A DNA stretch of 64,000 bases from Rhizophagus irregularis (Eukaryota). Below the pieces are notes generated by a model, which searched no databases, was not told the origin of the DNA, and was given only the letters and a program-made list of their open reading frames with translations. Position 1 is the stretch's first letter; every line of letters starts with the position of its first letter. The stretch covers positions 2,790,001 to 2,854,000 of the forward strand of contig NC_089432.1 of assembly GCF_026210795.1 (NCBI RefSeq), in the 5' to 3' direction. Position numbers and translations under genes: made by a program. Shown piece after piece: positions 9,674-60,953 of this stretch.

Positions 9674-12151
9674 ATGGATGGTAATAAATTATTACGAAAA
9701 TTATCACAAAATTTACTTGAAGTTTTAGATGATGGCGAATATTACGATATTATGATTGAAGTTGGTGATGGTAAAACTCACGCAAAAATATTTCGTGCTC
9801 ATATGGCCATATTAAATTATCGTTCTCCTTATTTACGAGAAATTTTATTTGAAAATAAATGGAAGAATTATGATGGAACTTTAGTACGAATTGAATTACC
9901 AAATATTTTGCCGGAAATTTTTCAAGTAATTTTAAGGTATTAAAAAAAAATATATTATTTATGCATTTTATAATCATATAATTTTTTTTTTTAATCGTGA
10001 ATGATTTTTTTTATTTATTTAGATATATTTATGGAGGGAAGTTAACTTTGAAAAATTATGATAATTTATATATAATTAAATTATTGATTGCTGCTAATGA
10101 ATTAAGTATTAAGGAATTGGTTATTTATATACAATTATTTTTGATTAATAACAGAGCAAATTGGTTGGAACAAAATTTTTATTTGATATATCAGACAATT
10201 TTTGAAAGTTATTCTTTCTTAGAACTTCAAAATTATTGTAATAATTTAATGTCAAAAAATCCGAATAAGATATTCGAATCATTAGATTTCCCTTCAATTC
10301 CAGAAAAAATTTTTATTTCGATTATTCAAAATGATAATCTTCAAATGGATGTAGTTCAAATATGGAAAAATGTTCTTAAATGGGGTCTTGCACAAAATCC
10401 GGAGCTTTCTTCAGAACCTCTTAGTTATTCAAAAGATGATTTTAATAATTTAAGGAATACCTTAGAACAATGTATTCCTTTTATTAAATTTTATGATTTA
10501 ACTTCTAAAGAATTTTCGGATAATATATTACCTTATAGGAAAATTATACCAGAGGAATTATATTTGGATTTATTACAAAGCTTTTTAAATTTACACCCTG
10601 ATAGCAAATTAAATATATCAAAACCTCATATGGTTAAAGAAATTAATCCTTCTCAACATAATATAAATAAATCGATAGAAATATTTAATCCTGCACCTTT
10701 TAGCAGAACTAATAAACGTCGTGTTAGAAGATATAGACAGGTATTTTTAATGACTTTTATGATTTTATCAAGAAATATATTTTATTTTTTAAGTTTGATT
10801 TATGAATCGCTTATTAATATTTTTTTGAAATTATATTTAGAGGTTAAAGAAGGTAAATTTTTCAAATTCTCCAAAGAAATTAATTTACGTCCAATTAATA
10901 TTTTGAATTAATTTTGAATTTTTTTTTCTTTTTTTTTTTTAATCACATATAAAGATTTTTTCCCAGATTGACAGTGAAAATTGTAGTCGTGGTTTTGGTC
11001 GTGGTTTTGGTCGCGGTCGCGGTCGTGGCGGTCGTTTTGGTAGAGGTCGTGATGAAGGCGATGAAGGAGAGGTATTGATTTAATTTTATCACGAAATAGA
11101 TTTATATATATATATGTTATTTTGAAATTTATGATCAAACATTTTTTTTTTTAATCACGTATAAAGATTTGTTTTCGTGGTGGTTACGGTCGTGGTCGTG
11201 ATGAAGGAGAGGTATTGATTTAATTTTATCATGAAATAGATTTATATATATATATGTTATTTTGAAATTTATGATCAAATTTTTTTTTTTTTAATCACGT
11301 ATAAAGATTTTTTCCCAGATTAACAGTGAAAATTGTAGTCGTGGTCGTGGTCGTGGTCGTGGTCTTGGTCGTGGTCTTGGTCGTGGTCGTGGTCGTGGTG
11401 GTCGTGGTTACGGTCGTGGTCGTGATGAAGGAGAGGTATTGATTTAATTTTATCACGAAATAGATTTATATATATATGTTATTTTGAAATTTATGATCAA
11501 AATTTATTTTTATTGCTTTATTTTAAAAGACGCCTATAAATTATAGTTCATGGGATAGAGTAGTACTTGTAAGAGATACATGGAATACTGAAGAGCATTT
11601 AAAGTATACATGGGAGAAACCTACGAAGGATGCATGGGACTTCACATTGGATGGTTCTGCAGGTGAATGGGGTGAAACGCCAGTAGCGCCGCAGTCTGCA
11701 GGTGGATGGGGTGAACTCATTGAAGAACCAGAAGCAGGTGGATGGGGTGAAGAGCCAGAAGCGTTGCAGTCTGCAGGTGGATGGGGTGAAGAGCCAGAAG
11801 CGCCGCAGTCCGCAGGTGGATGGGGTGAAACGCCAGTAACGACAGCTACAGGTGGGTGGGATGAACTCATTGAAGAGCCAGAAGCGCCGCAGTCTGCAGG
11901 TACTGCAGGTAGTTTGGATGATACGCAAGTAGCGCCGCAATTTGTGGATGATGTGAAAACATCTATTTCTAGTGATTATGTTTCTGGACGGAGTACAGAA
12001 AAGGTAACTATAAAAATATTTATTAAGTATTTTATATTTAATTTAAAATTCATGAATATAATTTATCTTTTACGACAAGGATCCTCAGAGTAGCACGATT
12101 ATTGAGAATAGCAATACGAAAAAGAAAAAAAACAAAAAAAAGAAAGTATAG
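9674..12151 (+). CDS. BTB/POZ-BACK protein with RG/RGG exons, GW/WG repeat tract and basic C-terminal tail (8 predicted exons)
   Basis: Exons 9674-9936, 10023-10740, 10841-10852, 10955-11071, 11167-11211, 11307-11435, 11530-12003, 12080-12151; all introns GT-AG; frame open throughout; BTB motif FRAHMAILNYRSPYLR..LPNI.PEIF..ILRYIYGG. Confidence 0.8.
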
Positions 12152-25141: not shown

Positions 25142-26507
25142 TTAAACGATATCTTCAACAATTTTATGAGGATCTAAACCCTCAAATACGATTCTATAAA
25201 CGGTTGTAAATAGAGGAAATCTATCGAGGAGAGAAAAAAATAAGGAATTAAGTAAATTTTTGAATGAAATATATTTTTTATAAAAATATTAAGTTTACTT
25301 ACTCTTTCTCCAATCCTTTTCGATGTAAAACTAAGTAGATTTCTTTTGCAGTAAGCGTTCCTTGTAATTTTTGACCATTGAGAAGTTCTTTCTCCAATTG
25401 TTCAAATGACTAGGAAGTGATTCATATAAGATACGTTAAGATACGTTAGCATACAAATACTAAACTATATAAAAATGCACATATAATATATTATATAACT
25501 ACTAATTACCTTTCCTGTAACAATGAATGCCTCAGCAGCTTTTCTATTTCTACCGCCATAACAAGTTGTAATTACATCAGCAATACCACAGCTTTCAAAG
25601 AAAGTTTCATCCTTGATACCCTTATAAAACATTTTAATATACTTTTTCATCTCCAATAAACCAATTCTAATAATAGCAGCTTTGGTATTTTCACCCAATT
25701 TTAAACCATCAATCATACCAGCACCTATAGCGATAACATTTTTTAATGCACCACATAATTCAACCCCTAAAACATCATCGACTATATTAACCTTAAAATA
25801 TTTTGTTTCAAATAACCTTTTAAATAATTTTCCTTCATGACGATTCTTATATCCAATTGTTGTTTCGGAAAACTTTTCTTGTGCAATTTCATTTGCTAAA
25901 TTTGCACCAGAAAGTGTACAAACCGAAATTTTCAAAGCTTCTTTGATCAAATGTGATATTGGACGAATTCCTGATTCTGTGGTATAAAATCCTTTAACTA
26001 AAGAGATAGCTTTAACTTTTGGATGAACATTTCCTTTTAATTTATCACATACACCATTTACAAACTGAAACAAAAAAAAAATATATTTTTATGTTATAAG
26101 TGAAAGTTCTTCAAAAATATTGTTACACTGAAATAAGTAAATAATAGTACCTGATGAGGAATAACTATTACTAAAATCGTAGCACCTTTGGCAGCTTCCA
26201 CGACATCAGGTACAGCTACAACATTTTCAGGAATACTAACTCCGGGTAAATATTTTACATTTTCATGTTTTTCGTTGATTAGATCAGTTAATTTTCTTTC
26301 GCCGATCATTTCTTCAAAAACCCACATTTTAATTTCATGTTCGAATCCACTCTGTTGAACAACATTTGTTCCTAATATCTTCGCAACCACAGTACCCCTG
26401 TAGAAAGTAGATTTTGATTAGTAACGAACGTTTGTATTACTGTCTAAAGATAATAATATTATATACCAATTTCCACTTCCAATCACAGCGACTTTCTCTT
26501 TAATCAT
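25142..26507 (-). CDS. GPD1: Glycerol-3-phosphate dehydrogenase (NAD+), multi-exon
   Basis: [15 protein letters not shown]ossmann motif, [37 protein letters not shown]; canonical introns. Confidence 0.93.
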
Positions 26508-28853: not shown

Positions 28854-29921
28854 GGGGATTGCTAACCATCGCCTGGATTTTTTTTTTCAAATATGTCACA
28901 ATATATAGAGTAAATTTATTAATCGGCTGATGGCTGATTTTTTTAACATAGCTATTTTGATCGGTTAAACTTAAAATTTTATTGCGAAGATATTTTTTAA
29001 AAAAATTTTTTTGCAAACATATTTATTCAAAATAATCTTATTTAATGAAATTTTATTTGCAGATATTAAAATTTAAGTCACACATTTACGATTTTAAAGA
29101 AAAAAATCACCGTATTTATTTTAATGAAGTGATACAAATAAAAAAAATAATAGTAACAAATAAAAAAGATAAGTAAATTACAATGATCAAGGAGACGAAA
29201 AGAAGTGATGGGAAGATGAAGAGGAGTAATAGGAAACGAAAAGGAGTGATGAGAGACAAAAAGAAATGATGGGAAGTAAACAGGAGAGAAAAAGAAATAA
29301 TGGAAAATGAAAAGATGTAATAGGAAATAATGGGAGACGAAAGGATGGAATAATGAGAATTAATACAAAAAATAAAAAGATGGTCATGATAGGAGGTTGG
29401 GTAATGATAGGAAACCAAGTAAAAATGAAACTATAAAGTAAAAAAAAAATGAAGTTAGTAAGAAACGAAATATAAGATAGAAACGAAATAAAAAAAATAA
29501 ATAAAAATAAAAAAACATACCTTTATTAATTATAGAACCGAAAGAACTAATTATCTAAAAAAAAGTGAAATAAAATTAGTGAAAACAAAATATGAAACAA
29601 AAACAAAATAAAAAAAAAATAAAAAAAATGAGTAAGAAACGAAACGTAAAGTGAAAAACAACTGAACCTTAATTGCAGAACCGGAACCTAAAAATAATGA
29701 AATGGAGTTAGTAAGAAACAAAGTGTAAGCAGAATGTAAGTTAGAAATAAAAATAAAAGAAAAGAAAAATACCTTGAGACCGAAAGAACCAAAGAAACGA
29801 ACCTATACTGAAAACGAGATTCGATTAATAAACATGTTACCAATCTGGCCAATCAAAAATATTAAATCTGTCACGTGATCGAAGACCCAGGCGACGCCCA
29901 GGCGACGTTTAGCAATTCCCC
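28854..29921. mobile_element. ~1.07-kb non-autonomous TIR element with 4-bp TSD (TTAT)
   Basis: GGGGATTGCTAACCATCGCCTGG / CCAGGCGACGTTTAGCAATTCCCC; strong purine strand bias; second copy inverted at 63352-64000. Confidence 0.8.
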
Positions 29922-33164: not shown

Positions 33165-36100
33165 ATGACTCACAGTAATGATAAGGGTAATAATTATATA
33201 TAATATATAGCATATAATTAGAACTCTAAAATTTTTAACAAATTTGCAATGCAATAAAATTAGTTTCCAAAGAATTTGAAGGAAGTAGTACCGAGGAATC
33301 TAAAGGTATATTAAACTAGCTGAAATATTAAATTTTTATTTGTAAATAATTTAAATACTATCAATAATTGTACCTTATATTATATAAAAATTATATTAAA
33401 TAATTTAGCTCGTAAGTTAATAGGTTATATTATAATTGAATAATAATGGAATTACTTAACATTTCTATTACATTTCATATAACTCATTAAATAATTAATA
33501 ATACTATAGTTGGTAAGTTATTAGTTATTTAAATCTTTAGTTTTTGCTTTATTTATTTTACATATTATTCAATTAACTAATTCTTTATTTAATAAATAAC
33601 TATTTAATATTGTATTACAGAAGGTAAGTTAAACTATCATATTTATTTGTTTAATATTTTATATAATTCAACTGATTATATTCTTAATTTAAATAACCAG
33701 ATTGTAAGTGATATTTAATTTGCAGTAAATATTTTTGTAATGTATTTATATCTAACTAATAATTAATTAACAATACTAGGGTGTAAGTTATAAATACATA
33801 TATTTTATATTATTTATATAATTTAAACTAATTAAATTCTTTATTTAAAAAATTATTTTATAGGTGGTATGTTATTTATTTAATTCTATTATTACTGATT
33901 TATATAATAATTACATATAATTTAAACTAACTAAATTCTTTATTTAAAAAATTATTATACAATCCAATATAGAGAGTAAGTTATTTATTTAATTATTTTA
34001 TTAATTATTTATATAATATTTGCATAAAATTTAAACTAACTAATTTTTTTATTTAAAAAATTATTGAATAACAATATAGAGAGTAAGTTATATTTATTTA
34101 ATTCTATTATTACTTATTTATATAATATTTATATATAATTTAAACTAACTAATTTATTTATTTAAAAAATTATTAAACATATAGAGAGTAAGTTATTTAT
34201 TTAACTATATTATTACTTATTCATATAATATTTACATATAATTTAAACTAACTAATTTTTTATTTAAAAAATTATTTTGTAATTTATTTTAGTTAGTAAG
34301 TTATAAGTTATTTATTTAATTTTATTATTACTTATTTATATAATATTTATATATAATTTAAACTAACTAAATTCTTTATTTACATAGTTTGTAAGTTATA
34401 AGTTATTTATTTAATTCTATTATTACTTATTTAACATTTATATATAATTTAGACTAACTAAATTCTTTATTTAAAATATTATTTAATTATATAGGGCGTA
34501 AGTTATTCTATTTTTACTTATTTAAATAATATTTACATATAATTTAAACTAATTAAATTCTTTATTTAAAAAAATTATTTTATAGATGGTATGTTATTTA
34601 TTTTATTCTATTATTACTTATTTATATAATAGTTATATACAATTTAAACTAAATTCTTTATTTAAAAAATTATTTTATAGATGGTATATTATTTATTTAA
34701 TTCTATTATTACATATTTATATAAGATTTACATATAATTTAAACAAATTCTTTATTTAAAAAATTATTTTACAGATGGTATGTTATTTATTTAATTCTAT
34801 TATTACATATTTATATAACATTTACATATAATTTAAACTAACTAAATTCTTTATTTAAAATATTATATAATAATACAGGGTGTAAGTTATTTATTTAATT
34901 TTATTATTACATATTTATATAATATTTACATATAATTTAACTAACAATTCTTTATTTAAAAAAATTATTTTATAGATGGTATGTTAGTTATTTACTTAAT
35001 TTTATTATTACTTATTTATATTATATATACATATTATTTAAAATGACTAAATCCTTTGTTTAAAAAATTATTTTATAGATGGTATGTTATTTATTTAATT
35101 CTATTATTATTACTTATTTATATAATATGTATTACATATACTAATTTAAACTAACTAAACTCTTTATTTAAATAGTTTGTAAGTTATAAGTTATTTATTT
35201 AATTCTATTATTATTTATTAATATAATATTACATATAATTTAAACTAACTAAATTCTTTGTTTAAATAGATTGTAAGTTATAAGTTATTTATTTAATTCT
35301 ATTATTACTATTATTACTTATTTATATAATATTTTATAATTTAAACTAACTAAATTCTTTATTTAAAAAATTATTTTATAGTTGGTATGTTATTTATTTA
35401 ATTCTATTATTATTTGTTTATATAATATTTACATATAATTTAAACTAACTAAATTCTTTATTTAAAAAATTATATAATATAGGGCGTGAGTTATTTATTT
35501 AATTATATAATATTTATATATAATTTAAACTAAATTATTCTTTATTTAAAAATTATTTTATAGTTGGTATGTTATTTATTTAATTCTATTATTATAATAT
35601 TTACATATAATTTAAACTAACAATTCTTTATTTAAAAAATTATTTAATAATATAGGGTGTAAGATATTCTATTATTACTTATTTATATAATATTTACATG
35701 TAATTTAAACTAACTAAATTCTTTATTTAAAAAATTATTTAATAATATAGGGCGTAAGTTATTTATTATTACTTATTTATATAATATTTACATATAATTT
35801 AAACTAACTAAATTCTTTATTTAAAAAAATTATTTTATAGATGGTATGTTATTTATTTAATTCTATTATTACTTATTTAGATAATCTTTAAATGTAATTT
35901 AAACTAACTAATAAACTCTTTATTTAAAAAATTATTTTATAGATGGTATGTTATTTATTTAATTCTATTATTACTTATTTATATAATATTTATATACAAT
36001 TTTAAACTAACTAAATTCTTTATTTAAAAAATTATTTTATAGATGGTATGCTATTTATTTGATTCTATTATTACTTTATTTATATAATATTTATATATAA

Positions 36101-37663
36101 TTTAAACTAACTAAATTCTTTATTTATAAAAATTATTTAATAATGTAGCTCGTAAGCTATTTGTTGTTTCTATTGTTATATTTTATATAGTATTTATTTG
36201 TTGATTGAATTCTTTCATTTAAATTTCTGTTACTTTAGTTGGTAAGTCGTAGGTTATTATTATATATTTTACAAAAACTAATGCCGTATATTATATTAAA
36301 TTTCTTCTTAAATTTAGAGTAAGTGTTGATTTTAATACTGTAACTTTTAATGTAAACTTTAATATAATTACAATTATTCAAATTTATAGATTTGGAAAAA
36401 GTGGAAATATAAATATGGATAATTTTATTTTGAAAAACAAATTAAAATGGATTCCTTATGATAAATTTAAAAATGCTGAATATCTTGATAAAGGAGGATT
36501 TGGTACTATATATAAAGCTAATTGGCTAAATAATAATGGATATAAAGAAGTAATTCTTAAATGTCATAATAATTTAAATGAAAATTTAAATGAGTTTTTA
36601 AATGAAGTATGATAATATATTATTTACTTTTTAGATTAAATATCTAAATTATAATTTATTTATACTAATACATTATTATTTTTTTATAGTGGAAATATCA
36701 CAAAAGTTGCTTAAGTTCAGATAAAATTATTTATTTTTATGGATTTACAAAAGATCCTAATACTTTGAAATATATGGTAGTAATGGATTGTGCAAATAAA
36801 GGTAATTTAAGAGGAAACTTAATGAGAGTAATCAAAAAAAAATGGAGTCAAAAATTATATATGTTATATGAAATTATTTCTGGACTTAATAATATACATG
36901 AACAAAATCTTATTCATTGTGATTTTCATGATGGCAATATTTTAGATCATAATTATGAAGATAATGATAAAATTTATGTTAGTGATTTAGGTTTATGTCG
37001 ACCTGTAAAATCATTTTTGAAAGAGCATAGTATTTATGGTGTATTACCATTTATGGCACCTGAAGTTTTAAGAGGCAAATCTTATACTCCAGCTAGTGAT
37101 ATTTATAGTTTTTCTATGATTATGTGGGAATTTACATCTGGTATACCACCATTTAACGATAAAGCACATGATATCCAACTTAGTTTAAGTATTTGTAAAG
37201 GTGAACGTCCTGAAATTATTGAAGATACTCCACAATGTTATGTAGATTTAATGAAAAGGTGTTGGGATGAAGACTCATTAAATAGGCCATCTTCTAAAGA
37301 AGTTTTAAGTATTATTGAAAATTGGATTTTTCGTTCTTCAGATAAGAAAATTAAAGATATTAATGAAGAATTAAAATACAATATTATGGAATTTATAAAT
37401 GCGCCAATTGGGCATAACAATAATCTTTCTAATGAGTCTCATCCACAGGCATATAATACAAGTCGCTTACTTGGTTTTACTAGTAAAGAATTGAATGAAA
37501 TTCTTGAAAGTAAAGATTCACCAGATTTGGATGATTGTATAGTTTTATTAGGTGTGTAATATAGTATATAAAAAGAATTAATTTGCAAATTATTTATGTG
37601 AGTTAACTTTATTTATTTAATTGTTTAGATACTAAAACAGTGTGTTTTTATAAGAATTTATAG
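33165..37663 (+). CDS. Intact TKL protein kinase whose N-terminus is encoded by 31 micro-exons (36 predicted exons)
   Basis: Exons 33165-33186, 33264-33305, thirty 3-nt exons (33409..36241), a 1-nt exon at 36318, then 36390-36606, 36690-37551, 37629-37663; GGFGTIY, VILK, HCDFHDGN, SDLG and APE all present. Confidence 0.8.
33306..36389 (+). repeat. Tandem array of ~70-110-bp intron units (GTAAGT/GTATGT...ACTAAC...YAG) separated by 3-nt exons
   Basis: 32 GT-AG units; central units near-identical (TAATTTAAACTAACTAAATTCTTTATTTAAAAAATTAT). Confidence 0.9.
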
Positions 37664-38105
37664 TTTTTTTTTAGTGATATTTGATGTCATGCATTTAACA
37701 GAAATTGTTGTTTAGATTTATTTAAACACTAATAAGGCTAGAGTAGTAAAATATCTTACAAGATTCTTAGTTTGTAATTTAAATAATTCCTTTTTTTATA
37801 GCTTATCCAAGTATTAAATATTATATTCTCTTTTATTTTACTTAGAATTATTTAAACACTAAGACTAGAGTAGTAAATATTTTACAAGTTTCTTACTTTG
37901 CAATTTAAATAAATCTTTTTTTTATAACTTTTCCAGTTATTAGATAAATCATCAAAATAATAATATAAGTATAAAAAATCATTATCAATTCATAAAATTG
38001 AAAATTTTTATACTCATTTAAGTAGATAATTGTTTTTAATTTATATTGTCAACCTTTATTTTTAGTATTATTTAAAGAAAATTTCTCACTGGCAGTCATG
38101 TTGTG

Positions 38106-38833: not shown

Positions 38834-40943
38834 TTATTCATTTAATTTATATTTAGCATTTTGATATCCTTGTTCAGCAGATTTTTTAAACAAACAAATT
38901 GCTTGACTTATATCTTTTTTAATTCCCATTCCATCTTTATAAAAAAAAGCAAGATTATATTGAGCCAAATAATTTCCTAAATCTGTAGCCTTTTTATATA
39001 ATTCAAATGATTTCTGATAATCAATATTAGTTCCAATTCCTTTTTTATAACACCATCCTAAATTACATATTCCAAGTAAATTTCCTAAACTTGCTGACAT
39101 TTGAAATAATTCAAATGCTTTTTGATCATTAATAAGAACCCCAATTCCATAAAGATAACAATTTCCTAGATTATAAAGTCCACGTGCACTTTCTAAATTT
39201 GCAGCCTTTTGATAAAATTCAAATGCTTTTAGTTGATTAGCAAAGGTTCCAATTCCTTTTTCATAACAATAACCTAAACTAGTTATTCCAAATGTATTAT
39301 TTAAATTTGAAGACTTTTGATATAATTCAAATGCTTTTTGTTCATCAACATTAATTTCAATTCCAAAATAATTAAATACTCCAAGTAAAAAAATAGAATC
39401 AGAATTTTCCTGATTATTAAGTAACCAATTATAAATTTCTTGTGAGGATACATTATGATTATCAAGATATTTAACAACTTTACATTTTCTCATTTTTATT
39501 TCTATATTTTCAAAAAGAGAAATTATTTCAACAACCATTATTTCAAAATCATTCATGATTAGATCTGATGAAATTGAAGGATCTATTTCATTTATATCAA
39601 TCCTACTAAAATTTTGAATAATTTGAGATATTTGTAAATTATTATTAATTACGTTTTCAGAAATTTCATTATAATCGTTTAATTGAATTTCTGAAATAAT
39701 TGTATTTAATTTCATAACAACCTGATTGATAGTTGGACGATTATCTGGTTCATTATTCCAGCAATCTAAAATATAATAAAATAAACTTTTATAAATATTG
39801 TTATTTTAAAATAATATATAATAATTAAATTTAATTAGTATATTTACCAGTATATATTTTTATGTAATCTTTAGGTGTATTGAGAGTGGGCTTCTCTCTA
39901 AGACCTTGTAATATTTCCATAGCCAAACCAACATCATATGGCTCATTACAAAAAGGTGGACGTCCACTAGAAATTTCCCATAAGAGTATGCCAATACTGT
40001 ATATATCACTCTTTTTGCTTAATGTATATATTTGTAATTGATTATTGCTATCTCTTCTATTAAAAATTTGTGGATCGATATAAGTAACCATTCCGAACAA
40101 TTTTGATTGAACATTAGATAATTCTTCAATCCTTTCTGATAATCCAAAATCAGTCAATTTGATGGTATTCTTATTAACTAATATATTATTTGAGTGCTAT
40201 TATTAAATATAATATGTATTAGATACTATAATCTTGCAGTATAATTTAATATAATATAAATTTAATAAATAACCTACCAAATTACGATGTACGATTTCTT
40301 TATCATGTAAGTATGATATTGCATTAGATAATTGAAATGCCAAATTTAATTTATCATTCCAAGTGAGGTTTTCAAAGTATTCACTTAAATAGTATCGAAG
40401 GGTACCATTGTCGGCATATTCCATCACTAACAAATATCTTTTTGAATCATCACTTTGGATTTCTTTTGAAAGAAAAAAAAATTATTTTAGATTTTTTTTC
40501 ATATGCGTATAATATGTATATATTTTTTAAAAATATTTGTAATATCGCACCTGATGTAATACCATAAAAGCGAATTATATTTTCATGAAAATCCATTTCA
40601 CGATGAAGTTTAAGCTAAAAAATAAATGAAATTATAAATTAGAAACATAATTTATTATAATACTTCATAAGAAATAAATACTAATAATCATATAAATTAC
40701 TTCATTAACAATTTCTTTGGTAATGGTATCAAAATTAAAAAAAAGTTTTAACGCTAAATAATTATGAGAATTATTCCAATTTGCACGATATACTTTTCCA
40801 AATCTTCCAAGACCAATTCCTTGAATATTATTAAAATATTTATAATCATAATATTTAATTTGTTTTTTTACAATAGATTCTTCAATCCAATTAATCCACT
40901 CCTTTGAATTATCAATAAATTTAATTTCAGTGTTATTAGACAT
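38834..40943 (-). CDS. TKL kinase-like domain plus Sel1-like repeats; catalytic HRD reads HRN
   Basis: GLGRFGKVY, ALK, HRNL|HSNN, TDFG; C-terminal LG.CY..GIG...KAFE.Y.KAA repeats; conserved intron positions. Confidence 0.85.
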
Positions 40944-42303
40944 CGTAAATATCAAATTTTTTACTGTGGAAGTTAATTTACGTCAAAAAGGTTAAAAAGA
41001 TTTAAGAAAAAAAAAAAAGAAAAAAAGAAATTTTATTCCGTTTATAGTTAGTAGAACATGAACACATTCCAAAAAAATAAATTTTGTGTAATTTGTTAAG
41101 TCAGCAAGAAAAAAAATTATGAGTAACAACGTCCTACGTCACACAGATCGTTATGGCCTGCATTTGGTTACATTTGAAAATCTGGGACACAGATCGGAAT
41201 TTTCATACAATTTATTCGGCTTAAAGTCATATTTTAATATTCTAGTATTCTTAAAAATTTTAATATTTAATTTTTTTCCAATAAATGTTTTAAAATTCTA
41301 AAAAAAAAAAATATTAAACTTAATTTATCTGTTATAGCGTAAATGCATATCTTCATAATCTTCATAAGAAAGTGATGATTGCCTTGATAAATTTAATTTA
41401 TAAGTCCATTTATGCGGACAGAAAATAAAAGTCATTTGATTAGACAATTTATTAAAAATCTGTCATGTAGCCGGAGTAAAATATCTGATATAAAACAAAA
41501 AAATAAAATAATCAAGTGATATAAAAGTGAATTTGAAATATTAGCAAAAATTTTGATTATTTAAAAGAAAAATGTTGACAATATATTGTTCCAATAGACA
41601 TTTTGTTATAGGATTAAGAGTACAAAGTTTTAATAAAAAAAAAATAACAAAAGAGTAAAAAAAAACTAATGCTCAAATTATGATGATATTGACACAACTG
41701 ATATAATCATAATAGAGATTTTTAATAAACATGTAAAACTTTAAAACTTAAGGTTTAAACATCCCGCGTAAATTTGGTAATTCATTTTTAATTATTATGT
41801 AATTTTTATTTTCTTTCATAAAAAATATATTAATATAATAATTGAATATTCTTTATTTCAAATTTATTCATAAATAAACAATATTTATGCTCAAGTAAAT
41901 AAAAATACCAATTCAGTTTTATTCATTAATTAGGTTTAAATCAGAAATGTAACGGAAAATTGGTTCCAGATTGTCTGAAATTTTTATTTCAAATTTGATT
42001 TAATTTTTACAAACGATTGTTTATGCTTTCATCAGTAAGAATTTTAAAATTATAAATAATTTATACGATAATCTATTCAATTATAACTAAGAATTTTGGA
42101 AGATGTCTCAAATCTAAAAATGATATTAAAGGGCGGTAATGCAGATCAATAAATCGGAAAAAATACGGCCCGGAAACAAATTAAATGATCACCTGGATTG
42201 TGCAATGATCGGAGTAATTTCCGCTTTTGATTTCTCATTATAAATATAAAAAAAAAATTTTATTTTTCTTTTTTTTTAAATACTTATATTACAAAAATAA
42301 CTA

Positions 42304-43854
42304 ATGGAACCCGAATTTAGTAAATTAAATATCTCAGGTGGAAATTCTAATTACAAAAATTGTTCATATTGTAATAATCCCTTTACTGAAGAATTATGGT
42401 GTAAAGAATGTGACCCATTTAGAATAATGGAAGGATGGACCAGCGGAAATTCTGATATTGATAAATTTATAAAAGATACAATGTGTAAGCCGAAAAATTA
42501 TAGTCGTGATTATGATAATTATTCATTTCTTGAATGGGTACCATTTGATAGATTTACAGATATAAAAGAAATTGGTGAAGGTGGATTTTCCAAAGTATAT
42601 TCTGCAACTTGGATTAATGGTAAATCATATTATGACGAAAAAAGTGATGGAAGTTGGAAAAAATTAGAACCTGAATCTATGGAAATTGCTTTGAAAAGGT
42701 TAAATGGATCACAGAATATGTCAGATAAATATTTAAATGAAGTACGTTTTTATACTATTTTGTATCTTATTTAATTTATTTCATTTGGGTGTTTAATAGT
42801 ATTAAATTATTTTATTTTAAATTTATTAAAATATAGCTTAAAATACATTGGGAAATTTCTAACAAAAGTGGATTATCATTTTATGGATTAACTAAAGACC
42901 CAGAAACTAAAGAATTTATGATGATTATAGAATTTGCTAGTAAAGGAAATTTGAGAAATGTTCTTTCAAATAACTTTAGTAACATTATGTGGGAATGTAA
43001 AATTAAATATTTAATGTATATATTAGTTGACTTAAAACAATTACATAAATTAGGATATTGCCATAAAGATTTTCATAGTGGGAATATTTTACAAACTGTT
43101 GTTACTTTTATTTCAGACTTCGGATTATCTGGACCAGCAAATGAACAAAAATCAGATGATAAAGTAGTATATGGAGTAATGCCATATATTGCACCAGAAG
43201 TCTTAAACGGAGAACCATATACATCATCATCCGATATTTATAGTCTAGGTGTAATTATGGCTGAATTATCATCAGGAAAACCACCTTTTTACAATAAAAA
43301 ACATGATTTAAGTTTAGCATTAGCCATATGTAATGGACTCAGACCAGAATTTGGAAAAGGAACTCCTGAATTTTATAAGAAATTAGCTTATAAATGCATG
43401 AGTGCCAATCCAAATGAAAGACCAGCAGCTGAAGAATTAAAAAAAATATTTGGTTTCTGGGATAGTTTTATTACAGGTAGTGAAAATAATAAAGAAAAAT
43501 ACGGTTATAAAGGAAAAGAAATTAAAGCAGCATTTGAAGAAGCTGATAAAGAAATACCAAACATCTCAACTTCGTATGAAAAGAATTCTGATGCTGTATA
43601 TACCAGTAGAGCGTTTACATTTAGCGATTTATTACCAAAACCCGTTAATTCATCCATTATTACTTCATATGTTAATAATGAAGGTATTTTCTATTTTATT
43701 TAAAAATTTTATTTTTACTTGAATAATTATTAATTTTATTATTTCAATAGTTAGTGACTCTCAATTAATCGACTTGGAAGTGTCTAATTCAATACAATTA
43801 AAAGGCACTATAGATATTGACGATGAAAGTAAGATTGATTATTTAGTGAATTAA
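42304..43854 (+). CDS. TKL protein kinase with N-terminal CxxC...CxxC module
   Basis: CSYC..WCKEC, GEGGFSKVY, IALK, HKDFHSGN, SDFG, APE; three predicted exons, frame intact. Confidence 0.85.
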
Positions 43855-47570: not shown

Positions 47571-50360
47571 TTTTCCGATACCATGGTGGGATGTTAATCA
47601 TTATTGTATAGTTTACAATCAAACGCTAAAATTTAAAACTGATTGTCAAAAATGGTGTTCATATTGTATTATAATTTATACTGGATGTAGGCATTGTTTG
47701 ACAACAAATATTATTTTTGGAATTATAGGTGAATCTCAATGTAAGAAATGCAAAAGAGTATCACTTATTACAATCAAAATGATAAAGATTAAAAAAAAAA
47801 TATCTAAAATTAACACAAATAGCTATAAACAGATTTCCAATTATATGAATAATAATGATAAAAATTCTAATCCACTTGAATTATATAAGTTTATCAAAAA
47901 ACTCGATCTTTTTCCTTTAAAACCATTGATATTCTGGAGTTCATATTCTCAAATTACAAGTTTATTAGGAAATAATGAAAATTCTTTTAAACCAAGTTTA
48001 CCAATTATGTTTATTCCTTTTAATAATAATGAAGATGAATGTCATTATTGTAATAGGAAATACGATAAATTAGATTCATTTGAACCAAAATTTTGTCATT
48101 ATTGTTTACGTTTTCATATTAATTTTATAGCTAAAAATATCAAATATACAATCAAAGACATGTATATATGTGATATTATAAATACATGTAAACATAAACG
48201 ACAAGAATGGTGTGAAATTTGCACTACAATTTTGTTCTTTGATATAATAGTTATAAATTATACAAAGAATAATAGATTTTGTGATTATGAAAATATTATT
48301 GAAAGTAGAAAAGATTGTAAATTATGTGGAAAATTAATTTATGAACAGACTTCAATTGATTCTGAGTATAAACTATGTTCAAATTGCTATAAAATTTCTT
48401 TTGAATGTGTTAAATCAACTTTGATTGAAAAAGCCATTCTAATTCTTTATTTACTATGGTGGGATGCTTATAATCAATGTATAGTTTGTAATAAACTCCT
48501 TGAATTCGAAGGTGATTGTCAAAAATTGTGTTCAAGCTGCTTTATATTTTATATTGGATGTAGATATTGTTTGACAACAAATATTATTTTTGGATATACA
48601 AATCAATCTAAATGTAGTAAATGTAAAAGAATTTTTATTATTGAAATCAGTGGAAATTATATTATTGACAAATTTTTACATTTTACAAATGTTGATAATA
48701 ATGATAAATATTATGAAATAGTTAATTATATTAATAATATTAATAATACCAACAAAAATTCTAATCCATTAAATATATATAGTTTTATTCGTGATAAGTA
48801 TTAGTTATTTACTAATCTAGTAGTATATAAATGGGTTATCATCCGAAGGATGATGGCCCATTTATATACTAAACTAGATCAGTAAATAACTTTTTTATCA
48901 TCCTAGATATACTAATTGGTCCGCCAGTTTATAACTGGCGGAAAAATCCTAAATACCAATTAGTAGCCAGGTGATAAGTTTGATTATCACTCTACAAGAC
49001 CAAAAATAAAATGGGTTTCATATTCACAAATTAAAATTTTTTTAAAAAATAGCAGATGGAGGATTTGGTATTATTTATAAAGCTTTAATTAATGGAAACG
49101 TTGTGACTATAAAAAAAATTTTGGGTTCTCAAGAACCAAATAAATATTTTCTGAATGAGGTAATTAATTTTTAAAATTAATTTTACTTTAAAAAAAAATA
49201 TTTATATAATATACTAATTTGAACTTTAAAATTTTAGTTAAAATCACTTTATCAATTTTATGATGGTAAATTTGAATATATTATTAAATGTCATGGTATC
49301 GCAAAAGATCCTATAACAAAAGAACTTATGTTTATAATGAAATATGCAAATGCATAATTATTTACAAAAGAATTTTGCAGAGATTACCTGGAAGAAAAAA
49401 TTGCATATTTTGTGGCGAATTTCAGATGGGTATTTATAACTTAATTAATAATGATTTTAAAATTATTTAAATAAAATTTTATTAATAACCAATTTTTTGT
49501 TTTAGACTACAAACTATTCATGAAAAAGATTTCGTACATCGAGATTTTCATAGTGGAAATACAGTATATTGATTGAAATAATTGAAAATGATTCATATAA
49601 AATAGATCAATATCTAATTGGAGATTTAGGATTTTCACGACCTGCAAATGACATTCCACAAGATAACATTATATATGGAGTAATGTCTTATATTGCACCA
49701 GAAATATTTAAAGGCATCAAATTTTCTAAATCGTCTGATATTTATTGTATGGTCATGATTATGTGGGAATTGACAACTGGCTGTAAGCCTTTTGCTAATA
49801 TTGAACATGATGTTGGTTTAATTTATAAGATCATTGATGGGAAACGGCCTAATATTACTGACGACACTCCGGACGATTTTACTAATTTAATGAAAAAATG
49901 TTGGAATCCTGATCCTAAAATGAGACCTTCGGCAACGGAAGTTTGTGAATTTTTTAATTCTTGGTCAAATATGGGAATGGATGCCGAATATTTTGATCAA
50001 GCTGAAGAAATAAGATTAGAATTAATAAAATCAAAAATGCTTGGACCAGATTTTAATGAAAAATCTCATCCAAAAGCAATTTATACAAGCAGATCAATAA
50101 CATTTAATACGAATACGAAACCAAGTATGTAAACATTATTTTTTATATAAATTTGGACAATATTTAAAACATTTTAACATTTAATAATTATTATCATCTT
50201 AGATAATAAACTTATTGATGAATCAGTCAACAATAAAGGTATTAAGTTATTTTTTTAATGATAGAATCAGTACGTAAAGGAATTTATTAATTACTTGATT
50301 CTTTTTCTTTGGAATATATTACAAGGGAATATGAGTTTGATATAAATGAAAATTATGAAA
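47570..50360 (+). pseudogene. Cys-rich repeat (multi-CxxC) TKL kinase pseudogene
   Basis: Duplicated WWD..C..C....GCRxCLTTNIIFG..CKKCKR modules, then GGFGIIY, HRDFHSGN, GDLG, APE with frameshifts; no clear start; insertion at 48800-48970. Confidence 0.8.
48800..48970. mobile_element. 171-bp structured insertion with 9-bp TSD and no terminal inverted repeats
   Basis: GTGATAAGT at 48791-48799 and 48971-48979; removal restores RDKFDYHSTRPKIKWVSYSQI; two internal hairpins. Confidence 0.8.
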
Positions 50361-50706: not shown

Positions 50707-52969
50707 TTATTCTTGTAGGTTTTCTAATTTAATTTGAGCATTTTGAAATCCTTGCTTAGCAGATTGTTTATACCAATAAATGGCTTTATTTATATCTTTT
50801 TCAACTCCATTTCCTGATTCATACAATAAGGCAAGATGATACTGAGCATCGTAATTCCCTAAATCAGCTGCTTTTTTATATAATCCAAATGCCTTTTTTA
50901 TATCAACATTAGTTCCAATTCCAAGATTATAATAACATCCTAATAGAGATATTCCGAATAAATATTTCCCTTCTGCTGATTTTTTAGCTAATTCGAAAGC
51001 TTTATCAAAATCTATTTCAACACCTTCTCCAAATTCATACATCAAAGCAAGGTTATATTGAGCTTTTGGATTTTCTAAAATTGTTGCCTTTTGATATAAT
51101 TCAAATGCCTTTTGCATATTGATTTCAGTTCCAATACCACTACAATAACAATACCCTAATAAATTTAATCCACCCAAGAGCCCAATTTCTGCTAATTTTT
51201 TAGATAATTCAAAGGCTTTTTTATAATTTCTATCACAAACTTCTCCATCTTTATACATATAAACAAGTTTTAATTGAGCCATATTGTTTTCTAATACTGC
51301 AGCTTTTTCATAAAGTTCAAGTGCTTTTTCCTTATTAATATCAGTTACAATTCCATGATAATTAAAATATCCAAGTAAATAAATAGAATTTGAACAATCT
51401 TGATTAATTAAAAGCCAATGGTAAATTTCTTGTATACTAATTTTGCAATCATCAATATAACCGAAAGCACTTTCCCTACATACACTTTCTTCTATTCCTT
51501 CATTTATTTCCTTAAAATAAATATTAACAAATTTATCAATTATGATACTTAAATCTTCTTCAAATATGTTTTCGTGAATTTGTTGTATTGTAGGTTCTAT
51601 TTCGATCATATGAGACAATTTTCCATATCCATACAATAAACAATCATTAGTATCCGATCGAATAACATTGCTTGAATTAAATAATTGGGTTGACTTTGTA
51701 ACCATTGCTCTTAATTTATAAATCACTTGTCTCATTGTCGGTCTTTTATTTGGTTCATTATTCCAACATTCTAAAAAATTAAAAAGCAGTGTATTACGTT
51801 ACATAAAAATTAAGATTTTAATATTAAATTGATATTAATGTAAAATTATAAATATAAAATTATATTTACCAGTATATAAATTAGAATAATCAACGGGAGT
51901 ACCTAAAACGTTTGTTTCTCTGTAACCCTGTAAAATTTTCTTAATTAAATTAGCATCATTTGATTCGTCTTCAAATGATGGTCGACCACTTGATATTTCC
52001 CATAGAATCATTCCAAAAGCGTAAACATGGCTCTTTTCATTTAATGAATATGATTGTATTAATTCATTATTGTCATTTAACCTTTTTGGGTCGATATAAA
52101 GAATTTTATCAAATGAACCTGATTGGTTTTCAGAAACTCTTTTGATTCTATTTAATAATGTAAAATTGGCTAATTTGATGGTTTTCTGATGAAAAAAAAT
52201 ATTCCCAGGGTACTAAAAAAAAATAAAATTTTTTAATTAATATTTATTTATTTTAATGAATTTAACGAAATAAATAAATTACCAAATCATGATACGCAAT
52301 TCCTTTATCATGTAAAAATAATATAGCACATGCTAACTGGTACGCCAATTCATATTTGTCCTTCCAAGTAAGATTATTAAAATTTTCTTTCAAATAATCT
52401 CGAAGGGAACCACCGTTAGCATATTCCATTACTAATAAATATTCTTTCATTTGACCATTTTGATTTTCTAAAGGAAATAATAATTATTATAATTTATCAA
52501 ATTAGTAAACATATTTTAAAAAATTTAATCCAAAATCTTTTAATTATTTATAATATTTTATACCTTTATCAGTAATTCCAAAAAAGTTAATTAAATTATT
52601 ATGAAAATTAACTTTACTTTGAAGTTTAAACTAAATTATGAATAAAATATAATTAAAAAATGATAAATTGCTATATAATGTTTTCAATATTAAAATATTA
52701 TAGACCAAGATATAAAATAAACCAAGATAATATTTTATTTATATAATTACCTCATGAATGAGTTCTTCTTTTAAAATGTCATTGTCAATAATATTAAAGG
52801 ACTTTAATACAAAATGTTGTTCCGAATTTTTACAATTTGCACGATAAATTTGGTTACCAATTTTCTCAATATTATAAAAATTTTCATATTTGTAATACTT
52901 AATATTATTTACTAATATAAAATCTTCAACCCAATTAATTAATTCATTTGAATTTTTGGTGGTTTTCAT
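50707..52969 (-). CDS. Pseudokinase (TKL-like) plus Sel1-like repeats
   Basis: Gly-loop lost (KIGNQIYRAN), YHDL|YPGN, DFG replaced by NFT; about 6 Sel1 repeats; same intron layout as paralogs. Confidence 0.8.
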
Positions 52970-54977
52970 TTTATTTTTATCAGACGTGAAAAAATACCAA
53001 AAAAAAAAAAGACGACCGCTGATGAGCCCTTTTTTTGTATGTTACACATTATGTAATTATGATGACTAATCACGGTATTGTAACGCTGTAACGCACGTGA
53101 GATCATGTAACTCACAGACCAATTAAGATTAATTTGATCGGCATTAAATATATGGTTAAAGTTGGCTGAAACAGAAATTTTAACCGATTAAACTCATCAT
53201 CTGATAATAACAATAATAACGATAGCGGGAAAATATATATGGATTGATTAATTGGATTGATAATTAAGAATATGAGGATTTATTAAAAGATTATTTCCGG
53301 AGTACAGTATTTGGAAAAGTGTGTCATAATAATTGTTACGTTGAAAATTTTGATATACTAAATTGTATTCTAATATAGTCTCAGAAATTAAATCGATTGA
53401 AGTTATTCTTCAATATCTCCGTCAGCGTTACTGATAAATAATCTCTTTATTTGATCAACTTTATTTCTAACGAAATATAATAAAAAAATAAATTTTACAA
53501 TTGTTAAATCATTATTAAATATTGTATTAAAATTTTGTAATTCCGGGTTACCGAGAAAATATACGTTTCGTTCAAATTACTTAACCAATGCACCTGTGGG
53601 CTGTGGTTTTGTTGACCGCACAAAACAGTCTATCTATTTGTTATAAAACTTACCCTTTACAATTTAATCAAAAATAGTTTCTTGAGGATTTGATGTACTA
53701 TTAAACTTACATAGTCCATACAATTTTATTGACACTTGCCAAATGTAACAAAATATAATAAATAAATTGGCAGAATGTAAATATAATCTTGGTATTAAAT
53801 TATTTGCTTCAGGAGTTATCCAGTAAATCAATACGGCTAATAACTTTAAGTTCATCATAAACTATTACTATTTACTACTATCGGTGTTGTAAATTTTTTA
53901 AAAAATATAAATACTTTCTTTTGTCACTGCAGAATAACTCTTTTATAAAATTAGATAATCTACAAGTAAAATAACGATCCCTTAACTTCTCTGCACTACA
54001 CAATATCTCTTTTCTAAGAAGAAACAGAAGAAACAATAATTTTTTTTCAGTTGCTAATAAAACAGAATAACCAAGAAGACTTTCTTTTTAAAATTAATTA
54101 ATAATTCAATATTGATCTTAATTGAATGTTTTTACATTCTAATAGTATAATAAAGTATTATCATAGGCTCTTAATCGAATCAATTAACATCGAACTTAAT
54201 CAATGGTTCGATCACAAAATATTGGCTTTGATTAAAATTGAACTATCTCTTGATCAAACAAATTTGATAATTTGATTGATCAAACTTATCCGAATTGATC
54301 GATCATGAAAATCTGGTGCATAAAAAACTAATTTTTTTTTCTAATTTCTACATAATAAAATAAATTAAAGTAAAAATTAGAAATTTTTAATAAAAGTTCA
54401 ATCATTTAAATTTAATGATCGATCAAAAATTGATTGCACGATTTTGATCGATCACGCACCTGCAAGATCGATCAAATTCCTCGATTGCAACTTTTTGATA
54501 CCCTAATCTTTAAATATTAATATGGTGCATTTTTTTGCATAAATATAAATTTATATATATATTCTGAAATTTGTTTGTAGTTTGTATAACTTTCCATTTT
54601 ATTCATTTATATTTTAAAGATTTGGCATTTTAGTTATTTATTTCTTTATGCGCCTATCAATCTTAATATCATTTTATACTTTATATAATCCTTGTTTATT
54701 TGTCATTACTCTTTTACCTGCATACTAAACATGGCCTACATTTTATGAAAAATTTTCTAATTTTTAAACGATTGGACATATTACTATTAAATTTTACGTA
54801 AAATTGTACAAAGACAAAAGATCGTCATAATTATATTACACAATAGTGTAACCCGGAAAAATATTTATTAACACTATTTCGAATGATCAACAATTAATTT
54901 TAGGTTTCCATAATTCCATAAAGAGTTTTTTTTTAACCATTTTTGTCGACAATTTTTTTTGTTTACTTAATAGCGCT

Positions 54978-57108
54978 ATGTCTAATAATAACAATATTAA
55001 CATTAACGAAATACAAAGTGAAGAAAATATAAAAGAATGTATTAATTGGATTGAAGAAGCTCTTACTAAGGAATATTTTAAATACTACGAATTCGAAAAT
55101 TTTAAACATATTCAAGAAATTGGTTCCGGAACATTTGGAAAAGTTTACCGTGCAAATTGGAAAAATTTTGAACATTATTTAGCGTTAAAATCTTTTTTTA
55201 AGCCCAGTAATATCACCATAAAAGAAATTGTTAATGAGGTAAATTTATTGAAATACATAAAATAAAATATTTTATCTTTTCTTAATAATAATTATTATAC
55301 ATTCACAATTTAGCTTAAACTTCAACGAGATGTAAATTTTCATGCCAATATTATTCGATATTACGGAATTACAAAACTTGAATCAGGTATTTGATAAAAT
55401 ATTTAATAATTATAATTAAATTATATTAATTTAAACTTTTTTTTTTTTGCAAAATCTAACAAAAATTTTATTTCCCTTTTTTTTTGTTAGAAAATAAAAT
55501 TGATCAAACAAAAAATTATTTGTTGGTTATGGAATGCGCAGATGGTGGTACTCTTCGAGATTATTTGAAAAATAACTTTAATAGACTTACCTGGAAACAT
55601 AAATATAACTTGGCTTACCAATTAGCTTGTTCTGTATCATTTCTGCATGATGAAGGGATTGTTCACCGAGACTTGGTAATCTTTTTATTTAATATAAAAC
55701 GATAATATGTTTATTTCATAAAAGCTAATTTGCCTTTATTTGTACTAGCATTCCTGTAATGTGTTGGTTCATCAGAATTCCATCAAGTTGGCGGACTTTG
55801 GGCTATCAAAAAGGATTGACGAGGCATCTAATTCAAAATCAAAATTACTTGGTATGGTGCCCTATATTGATCCAAAAATATTATTGTTCAACAATTTAAA
55901 ATTAAATGAGAAGAGCGATGTATATAGTATTGGCGTATTGTTATGGGAAATATCAAGTGGGAACCCACCATTTCATGAAGAATCAAATAAGTCTAGTTTA
56001 ATGTATGAAATTTTGTATGGTCGAAGAGAAAAGATTATTCCTAATACTCTTAATGATTATTCTAATCTCTATACTGGTAAATATAATTTCAATATATTAA
56101 ATATAACATTTTTTCTTACTATTCATCAAAATAATTATTTAGTCAAATTATTATTATTAATTATTAGAATGTTGGAAAGGTAAACCAAACAATCGACCAT
56201 TCATGCATGAAGTTGTTGATAGGTTAGAAAATTTTATTTCAAATTTAAATAGTGATATTTCATCCGAGAATTCAAGCATAATAGTTAATGAAATAATTGA
56301 TCTCATTTTTAAGGAAGTTAATAAAAGAAATGTGTCAAAACCACATGTTCTTGATTATATTACTAATCATAGTATAAATTCAAAAGAAATTTATAATAGG
56401 TTATTAAATAATCAAAATACTCCGAATTTCATTTTTTTACTTGGATATTTTAATTATGTAGGAATTGAAACAATTAAGAATCATGAAAAAGCATTTAATT
56501 TATTTATAAATGCATCTGAAGAGGGTCATATGTTAGCAAAATATTTGGTTGGACATTGTTATGAATTTGGAGATGGAATTATAAGAAATGATAAGCTTGC
56601 TTTTGAAAATTATGAAAAATTGGCTAATAAAGATTATGCAATAGGACAATTTAAATTAGGTTGGTTTTACAAAAATGGATTAAGTGTTAAAAAAGATTCA
56701 AAATTAGCTGTATATTGGTATGAAAAAGCTGCAAATAATGGAAATTTGATAGCTATGTCTAATCTTGGCCATTCATATAAAGATGGAAATGGTGTTAATA
56801 AAGATAACCAAAAAGCTTTTGAATTATTTAAAAAATCAGCTGAAGGAGAATTTTCAGGTGGAATAATGATGTTAGGATATTGTTATGAACTTGGTATTGG
56901 AATTGATATTGATAAGCAAAAAGCAGCTGAATTATACCAAAAAGCTGCAAATTTAGGACATAAGGCAGCACAATATAATCTAGCATTGATGTATGAAAAA
57001 GGAAACAGTATTGAAAAAGATTTGAATAAAGCAATTTATTGGTATGAAAAATCTGCTAATCAAGGAGATAAAGATGCTCAAAATAAATTAAACATACTCA
57101 AAATTTAG
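54978..57108 (+). CDS. TKL kinase plus Sel1-like repeats (tandem copy 1)
   Basis: GSGTFGKVY, ALK, HRDL|HSCN, ADFG; Sel1 repeats in the last exon. Confidence 0.88.
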
Positions 57109-58673: not shown

Positions 58674-60953
58674 ATGTCTAATAATAACAATATTAACGAA
58701 ATACAAAATAAAGAAAATACAAATGAATGGATCAATTAGATTGAAGAAGCTCTTACTAAAGAATATTTAAAATATTACGAATTTGAAAATTTTAAAAATA
58801 TTCAAGAAATTGGTTCCGGAGCATTTGGAAAAGTTTTCCGTGCAAATTGGAAAAATTTTGAACATTATTTAGCGCTAAAATCCTTTTTTAATCTTAATAA
58901 CATTACCGTAAAAGAAATTGTTAATGAGGTAATTTCTATTTGAATTTGCAATATTCTTCAATAATAATAATTTATTTTTGCGTATTATTTTTATATTTAT
59001 TGTTTTTTTTTTTATAATACATTCATAATTTAGCTTAAACTACAACGAGATGTAGATTTTCATGGCAATATTATTCGCTTTTATGGAATTACAAAATTTG
59101 AGTCAGGTATTGATAAATTATTAAAATAAAATTTATTTAATTAAATTTATTTTTTCTTTTTTTTGCAAAAACTAATAAAACTTTGTTTCTTTTTTTTGTT
59201 AGAAAATAAAATCGACCAAACAAAAAATTATTTGTTGGTAATGGAATACGCAAACGGTGGTACTCTTCGAGATTATTTGAAAAATAATTTTAATAGACTT
59301 ACTTGGACCGATAAATATAATTTGGCTTATCAATTAGCTTGTTCTGTATCATGTCTACATGACGAAGGGATCGTTCACCGAGACCTGGTAATCTTTTTTC
59401 TTAATATAAAATAATAATATGGTTATCATAGAAGCTAACAAGCCTTCATTTGTATAGCATTCCTGTAATGTGTTGGTTCATCAGAATTCTATCAGGTTGG
59501 CGGACTTTGGGTTATCTAAAAGGATCGACGAAGCATCTAGAACACGTTCAAAATTACTTGGTATGGTTCCCTATATTGATCCAAAAGTATTAATGAACAA
59601 CAATCTAAAATTAAATGAGAAAAGTGATGTGTATAGTATTGGCGTATTGTTATGGGAAATATCAAGTGGGAACCCACCATTTTATGAAGAGTCAAATAAG
59701 ATTGGTCTAATCTACGAAATTTCACAAAATCGAAGGGAAGAAATTATTCCTAATACTCCCAATGATTATTCTAATCTCTATACTGGTAAATATAATTTCA
59801 ATATATTAAATACTGTATAAACATTTTCAAAATAATTGTTTGATTAAATAAATATTATTAATTATTAGGGTGCTGGAATGGTGAACCAATCAATCGACCA
59901 AATATACATGAAGTTGTTAATAGGCTAAAATTCATTTCAAATTCTAGTAATAGTGTAACAACTTGTCAACAGAATGATATATCTAACCAAACTAATTCCA
60001 AGTTAAGTGAAATTCTAACTCCTAGTAGTACTATAATTTCATTACATGGAGAATTATCTCAAATGATCGAAAGTTTTAATAATATGAATACAAATGAAAT
60101 AGATATGATGACTAGTACAATTAAGCAAATTAATGATAATGTTTCATCTGAAAATTTAAGCATAATAGTTGACGAAATAGTTGATCTCATTTTTAAGGTG
60201 GGTAATAAGTGGAATGTGGTAGAACAGCATGTTCTTAATTATCTTAATAATCATAATATAAATTCAAAAGAAATTTATAATTGGTTATTAGATAATCAAA
60301 ATATTTCAAATTTCATATTTTTACTTGGGTTTTTTTATTATGCTGGAATTGAAACGATTAGGAATCATGAAAAAGCATTTAATTTATTTATAAATGCATC
60401 TGAAGAGGGTCATATATTAGCACAATATTTGGTTGGACATTGTTATGAATTTGGGGATGGAATTATAAGAAATGATAATCTTGCTTTTGAAAATTATGAA
60501 AAATTGGCTAATAAAGATTACGCAATAGGACAATTTAAATTAGGTTGGTTTTATGATAATGGATTATATGTTAAGAAGGATCCAAAATTAGCAGCATATT
60601 GGTTTGAAAAAGCTGTAAAAAATGGAAATTTGGTAGCTATGTTTAATCTTGGCATTTTGTATATAAATGGAAATGGTGTCGATGAAAATCATCAAAAAGC
60701 TTTTGAACTATTCAAACAATCAGCTGAAGGAGAAGATTTAGATGGAATCATGTTGTTAGGAGATTGTTATAATGATGGAATTGGAATTAATATTGATAAG
60801 CGAAAGGCAGCTGAATTATATCAGAAGGCTGCAAATTTAGGACATAAAGTAGCTCAATATAATCTTGCTACAATGTATGAAAAAGGAGGCGGCATTGAAA
60901 AGGATTTAGATAAAGCAATTTACTGGTATGAGCAATCTACTAAACATATATGA
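58674..60953 (+). pseudogene. TKL kinase plus Sel1-like repeats (tandem copy 2) with premature stop
   Basis: In-frame TAG at 58737-58739 where copy 1 has TGG (WINW); otherwise collinear with 54978-57108. Confidence 0.8.

Follow-up and report, generated by a model that had tools for sequence, protein, structure and literature searches.

A serial array of one-codon micro-exons ahead of a predicted TKL-type kinase in Rhizophagus irregularis and its possible diversification in DNA

What can a kinase gene gain from thirty consecutive exons of three nucleotides each? This question is raised by a locus of Rhizophagus irregularis lying in the window, by which we mean the whole 64-kb stretch of DNA that was analysed, an AT-rich piece of fungal DNA with several kinase and Sel1-repeat genes. 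A sequence-only reading of the window had proposed that the array is a combinatorial diversifier of a receptor-like kinase. We lean, with moderate confidence, towards a different explanation, namely that splicing of the array yields a variable segment, 31 residues long, in a kinase predicted to be cytosolic, and that this segment is diversified mainly in the DNA, by unequal crossing-over.

The micro-exon array is a real feature of this DNA. In a motif scan of the forward strand, the reading AG|NNN|GT accounted for 30 of 30 units between 33409 and 36241, with start-to-start spacings of 79-112 nt and introns of 76-109 nt. The units have TAG (26) or CAG (4) acceptors and GTAAGT (16) or GTATGT (9) donors, the remaining five donors being single variants, and a CTRAY branch-like motif was present in 23 of the 29 array introns. 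On the forward strand the AG-NNN-GT motif occurred 30 times in the 2,880 nt of the array and 12 times in the remaining 61,120 nt, whereas 1,000 mononucleotide shuffles gave a mean of 0.18 and a maximum of 3; on the reverse strand of the array region it was absent. The triplets are drawn from an alphabet of 11 types, with ATG used eight times, and 8 of the 30 contain an inner AG or GT that permits an alternative cut of 0 or 1 nt.

The array is not uniform along its length. The four 5' micro-exons (CTC, TTG, AAG and ATT; 33409..33703, +) have introns diverged from the repeat core, with best intron scores to the core of 16-38 as against 50-82 inside it. They are followed by a homogenised core of 25 three-nt exons (33780..36151, +), delimited by Tandem Repeats Finder (TRF), intron alignment and Mantel tests and organised in exon-centred cassettes of about 95 nt; over the array, TRF reported a period of 95, 18.9 copies and 79% matches. 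Introns 5-28 share the core sequence and the terminal introns are diverged, including those on either side of the last 3-nt exon, TTG (36239..36241, +), a triplet that occupies the same place in paralog RNA. The array ends in a one-base exon, A (36318..36318, +), read as AG|A|GTAAGT, which sets the frame for the kinase. The statement of the sequence-only reading that every exon measures 3 nt holds for the 30 units and fails for this exon, which lies outside the range it had covered. Thirty-one exons of 1-3 nt in series represent an extreme case for the spliceosome.

The predicted gene consists of two upstream exons, the 30 triplets, the 1-nt exon and two kinase exons, which together encode a stop-free protein of 413 aa, the micro-exons supplying 91 of the 1,242 coding nt. 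Exon 1 (33165..33186, +) was predicted from the sequence, carries the start codon (MTHSNDK plus a G) and has the donor GTAATA; exon 2 (33264..33305, +), likewise predicted, is 42 nt long, encodes SKEFEGSSTEESK and lies between a TAG acceptor and a GTATAT donor. A peptide resembling exon 1/exon 2 was present in 18 of 199 paralog models. Kinase exon A (36390..36606, +) encodes the FGKSGN linker, WIPY, the glycine loop and the catalytic Lys; its start is marked by a step in RNA depth and its end by the joint 36606>36690. Kinase exon B (36690..37559, +) encodes HCDFHDGN, DLG and APE and runs up to the stop. Exons 1 and 2 end in phase 1, the 30 triplets hold phase 1, and the 1-nt exon leads to phase 2. 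As the model without the 1-nt exon meets a stop at residue 59, the frame closes only with this exon and not all exons are skippable; thus the earlier claim that any subset can be skipped in frame is right in that 3-nt exons keep the phase, but it does not extend to the single-base exon. The stop-free order of the triplets argues only weakly for the model, since 24% of random triplet orders were also stop-free. Frame 0, in which the triplets themselves are codons and give a G/M/I/L-rich peptide as in the public models, was rejected, as it does not join kinase exon A via the strong donor of the 1-nt exon and also runs against the RNA ends, which fit that exon; the third frame contains 7 stops. 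There may be one more short exon on the 3' side, near 37629: the public model P0121 ends in LDTKT..., as expected of a splice 37552>37629. Behind the kinase, in its 3' flank, we also observed a 126-nt direct duplication (37712-37946), and a similar element lies behind a metagenomic paralog locus (L001, about 1-200), so that it may be a family-wide 3' feature.

Read in this frame, the array encodes 31 residues by split codons, N-terminal to the kinase. The richness in W, H, D, Y and C noted earlier was found in 14 of the 31 residues, but with a single Cys among them. The term 'receptor-like' did not survive: a simple window scan of the 413-aa protein revealed no signal peptide, membrane span or hydrophobic leader, the highest 19-residue hydropathy being -0.22 in the first 80 aa and 0.73 overall, so we predict a cytosolic protein. 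The catalytic Lys (ILK), HCDFHDGN, DLG and APE motifs can all be read in the predicted kinase domain, and kinase exon B (36690-37556) is 100% identical to the R. irregularis TKL-type kinase P0001. For that protein, Pfam gave kinase families only, with PF07714 as the best match and PF00069 besides, and neither NACHT nor ankyrin domains. The nearest solved chains were those of EGFR, CTR1, MLT, RIPK4, Roco4, RIPK1 and IRAK4. By these sequence comparisons the domain would belong to the TKL/TK branch and be of TKL type.

To what extent is the array spliced? RNA was compared in 5 of 24 runs, using two stretches outside the array core. In the first comparison, at 90% likeness, the intron 36606>36690 (GT..AG) was spliced in reads of three runs; these reads were dominated by kinase-domain paralogs, and those 99+% alike to the locus numbered 4 of 1289, 11 of 1553 and 0 of 937. 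In the second comparison (36225-36480, 85% likeness) the depth rose from 0-2 over the introns to 42-227 just inside kinase exon A. At 36390 the reads departed from the genome, with upstream letters ending in CTT TTG A in 125 (X21), 167 (X22) and 28 (X24) reads and in three contigs (X3), that is, in three raw-read runs from two studies and the contigs of a fourth run, X24 and X3 being taken as RNA by guess. For the studied locus the prediction at this place is CTC TTG A; the genome itself has the end of an intron at that point. These reads came from paralogs: reads 99+% alike to the locus were 0 of 295, 2 of 334 and 0 of 107, and contigs 4 of 16. Since the last three micro-exons can be read in the paralog reads directly upstream of the kinase exon start, these terminal units are spliced at the family level, in paralogs. 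The idea of micro-exons with split codons ahead of a kinase was thereby borne out, both by the gene model and by the terminal micro-exons spliced in paralog RNA. We infer that the array core is spliced as well and that the studied copy is expressed.

Further upstream, consensus ends parsed by hand from the right often contained AT-starting triplets in the ATG/ATT register of the window, with an agreement of 0.61-0.71, as expected for mixed paralogs; these loose ends are known from a 30-letter consensus only. Over about nine micro-exons, a read group ending at 36391 reached an agreement of 0.85 in X21 (23 reads) and of only 0.68 in X22 (20 reads). Moreover, four X3 contigs extended 121-459 letters upstream unbroken at a depth of 4-16, contigs being prone to drop rare variants. 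We take this as a weak sign of one main isoform per gene. Another run, X17, behaved as DNA and carried the 3' end of the studied locus with three changed letters and two gaps. In addition, a loose end at 36424 (X24) and the model P0252 revealed an expressed relative in which a KFEGSRN motif stands directly before the kinase linker, apparently with no array; it is a possible outgroup for the origin of the array.

The way in which the units differ from each other bears on how the array changes. Mantel tests on units 6-28 linked exon distance to the distance of the upstream acceptor tail (r 0.45, p 0.0005) and of the downstream donor head (r 0.32, p 0.003), and linked tail and head across one exon (r 0.54, p 0.0005), whereas head and tail of the same intron were unlinked (r -0.01, p 0.50). 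In the same units a GTAT donor followed 11 of 11 G-ending exons and 0 of 12 others. As the exon is linked to both flanks and the two intron ends are not linked to each other, descent goes by exon-centred units with breakpoints in the intron core, and we interpret this linkage as a probable trace of unequal crossing-over or conversion. The expectation that exon positions vary more than intron positions was also confirmed: the exon columns carried 1.47, 0.93 and 1.81 bits, as against a mean of 0.27 over the 96 of 137 intron columns with few gaps. This contrast mostly reflects cassette classes. Within the largest class (unit 17 being dropped downstream for an insertion) the 3 exon sites held 2 changes and the 34 flank sites 5, numbers too small to demonstrate selection.

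The locus is, by sequence, a member of a strongly expanded Rhizophagus kinase family. A search with the kinase returned 1,288 proteins at E<=1e-30 among 1,746 candidates, and among the matches listed (120 of the 1,288) 113 were named Rhizophagus and 7 were JGI entries. The public model of the locus itself, P0122, contains 23 of the 30 triplets in order, a string that occurred in 0 of 200,000 shuffled orders; it reads them in the wrong frame, takes exon 2 in another frame and omits kinase exon A. The models P0001 and P0121 both begin without any array. A rough filter on composition picked out a triplet-like stretch in 12 of 197 models: that of the studied locus, a doubtful one (P0026), and those of ten paralogs belonging to R. 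irregularis and R. diaphanus. The comparison of arrays between paralogs, suggested together with the diversifier idea, thus revealed that content differs between their gene models: the ten stretches vary in content and measure 23-74 residues, including a few from exon 2, mostly in the wrong frame, and as automatic gene models that pick subsets they show difference, not exact arrays. The paralog models P0025 and P0043 begin with MGQCIC and MGQYIG, which we take to resemble myristoylation starts; the studied locus has no such start. Altogether, in the public models of the subfamily that were examined the true front end is absent, truncated or misframed, which leaves the hypervariable segment invisible.

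Other searches extended this picture. L001, the sole locus obtained from a metagenome scan, retains the 1-nt exon and an equally long last intron, and its sequence ends 51 nt above the 1-nt exon; there is no array in it. A scan of viral contigs for the core cassette gave 0 matches, a search with the N-terminus of P0148 gave 3 matches with no in-frame array peptides, and a representative search gave no recognisable transcript-derived N-termini of the FGKSGN-type kinase subfamily. Five other kinase loci of the window, examined over 4 kb of approximately placed upstream DNA, showed no micro-exon triplets. Among WTSGN-type relatives, 38 of 47 have a Cys pair immediately before the linker, as against 1 of 29 of the FGKSGN type, a comparison limited by the frequent mis-modelling of upstream sequences in the latter.

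Several neighbours of the locus were recorded in passing. The window contains four kinase plus Sel1-repeat genes (38834-41000, -; 50707-53000, -; 55000-57108, +; 58800-60953, +) and further kinases at 42301-43703 and 49554-50132, genes that are typical of expanded families of R. irregularis. Part of a gene for an NAD-dependent glycerol-3-phosphate dehydrogenase lies at 25465-26417 (-). There are also about seven tandem copies of a nearly palindromic 52-nt unit (3472-3827), a run of GTCGTG hexamers with, behind it, an open frame that carries AGGWGE-type repeats and has no Pfam match (11338-11885), and similar purine-rich motifs on opposite strands (about 29700-29750, +, and 63540-63560, -), perhaps two copies of one repeat or mobile element.

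Could alternative splicing, as in the Tuber nank genes, be the main diversifier, giving many peptides per gene for non-self or ligand recognition? We consider this rather unlikely, although much in the array would allow it. All 30 exons have 3 nt, the frame stays open in 29 of the 30 single skips and in 452 of the 465 block deletions, and by calculation a skip rate of 5% per exon would leave just 21% full-length transcripts, so that even slight leakiness would yield isoforms; the Tuber precedent exists in the accessible literature, and the low agreement of the loose RNA ends is compatible with combinatorial splicing. However, mixed paralogs also explain that low agreement, one read group agreed at 0.85, and the contigs pass upstream unbroken. 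The phase-keeping design would be needed equally for gain and loss at the DNA level. Moreover, stops arise in a third of fully random subsets. It had been claimed that they come from a few joins only; ATT or GGT joined to AGA does give TAG, in 6 of 435 pairs, but seven T-ending exons joined to the 1-nt exon give TAA, and in all a stop occurs in 33% of the 2^30 subsets, in 13 of the 465 block deletions and in 1 of the 30 single skips. A two-level generator, in which one-codon cassettes are reshuffled between copies and nuclei and each gene adds combinatorial splicing, strikes us as unlikely.

It is also conceivable that an intron with one codon expanded as a neutral minisatellite in a tolerant linker, its splice signals being kept for the sake of the kinase frame and its peptide having no specific role. 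The array is indeed a tandem repeat with a small triplet alphabet, from which its richness in D, H, Y, W and G follows; the segment holds no conserved metal motif, and the expressed relative without a linker array (the 36424 loose end and P0252) exists. Yet the exon positions are more varied than the intron core, and expressed paralogs, as well as R. irregularis and R. diaphanus models, retain the layout and the terminal units despite the cost of about 30 introns, and we judge neutrality to be quite unlikely. Very unlikely, in our view, is a silent studied copy, or a core that is lost from the transcript, by block skipping or by recursive splicing, before its triplets can reach the protein. 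The near absence of 99%-alike reads, the higher methylation of R. irregularis kinase genes relative to core genes given in the accessible text of PMC8647823, and the start of the P0001 and P0121 models without the array would fit it. However, the frame and all 30 splice-site pairs are intact, the compared runs may lack the studied copy, and paralog RNA holds at least nine triplets upstream of the kinase exon.

The anatomy of the array, as read from the DNA, points to reshuffling at the DNA level as coming first. According to the explanation that we favour, the whole array would be spliced like the last three micro-exons of the paralogs, giving the 31-residue segment ahead of the TKL-type kinase, and unequal crossing-over between near-identical intron cores would diversify this segment in the DNA. 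Acceptor tail, triplet and donor head would form a cassette that moves as one unit. Because every triplet keeps phase 1, the gain, loss or swap of a cassette would keep the frame and rewrite residues at the joins. In this way every paralog or allele would acquire a peptide of its own, probably with one main isoform and some leaky skipping. Since the segment occupies the position of the Cys-pair module found in many superfamily kinases, it likely tunes partner binding or activation.

Codon-sized mini-exons were reportedly described by Iotti et al. in 2012 for the nank family of Tuber melanosporum. In the accessible parts of the literature, these NACHT-ANK NLRs contain dozens of 3-bp alternatively spliced mini-exons (PMC4986451, PMC13449251, PMC10197012, PMC9815663, PMC3689799), and they appear to be the closest known system. 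Both cases combine dozens of coding 3-bp exons with an expanded gene family in a mycorrhizal fungus, as far as those sources go, and paralogs share the layout here too, as judged from ten gene models, L001 and paralog RNA. Unlike in Tuber, the host gene is a kinase with no NACHT or ankyrin domains, the lineage is a distant one (Glomeromycotina), and the array is N-terminal, forms part of a homogenised tandem repeat and closes with a 1-nt exon that sets the frame. Whereas alternative splicing is reported in the available text for Tuber nank, the 30-letter consensus ends of mixed paralogs agree here at 0.61-0.85.

Serial, frame-keeping micro-exons are also present in the micro-exon genes of Schistosoma, where they are larger and make up most of secreted proteins with signal peptides. 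The likeness lies in the series of frame-keeping micro-exons, whereas the gene studied here encodes a kinase with no hydrophobic leader and owes just a small part of its coding sequence to micro-exons. Scattered micro-exons of 1-3 nt are spliced in fungi, and gene models break if they are missed, as the accessible portions of the sources indicate: for Coprinopsis cinerea, 27 three-nt exons are spread over 26 genes and 13 genes hold one one-nt exon each (PMC12230235), and Arabidopsis has a single-nucleotide exon (PMC4674806). The single Rhizophagus gene, with 30 three-nt exons, thus exceeds the 27 given for the whole C. cinerea annotation. In fungal NLRs, repeats of high internal conservation are reshuffled by unequal crossing-over, according to the available text (PMC9815663, PMC13449251). 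The array resembles them in its near-identical tandem units with few variable positions, likely reshuffled in the DNA, but here conservation resides in the intron, and what varies is coding sequence of just one split codon. The high-copy Ser/Thr/Tyr (TKL-like) kinases of R. irregularis are class C genes and often methylated (PMC8647823); the studied gene is one of them, and the accessible text of that paper does not mention the micro-exon front end. Likewise, no such arrays are described in the available text on long-read-refined R. irregularis models, and our literature search, in which subscription journals were poorly covered, found no report of micro-exon arrays in arbuscular mycorrhizal fungi.

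One-codon arrays beside recognition or signalling domains in distant fungi, those of the Tuber NLRs being in print, hint at a recurring route of diversification. If true, the two-level generator would equip a largely clonal, many-nucleate fungus with a great variety of cytosolic sensor kinases by which to recognise self and non-self or partners. Through the array, what the many kinases of its expanded signalling families sense and how this clonal symbiont varies become directly testable.
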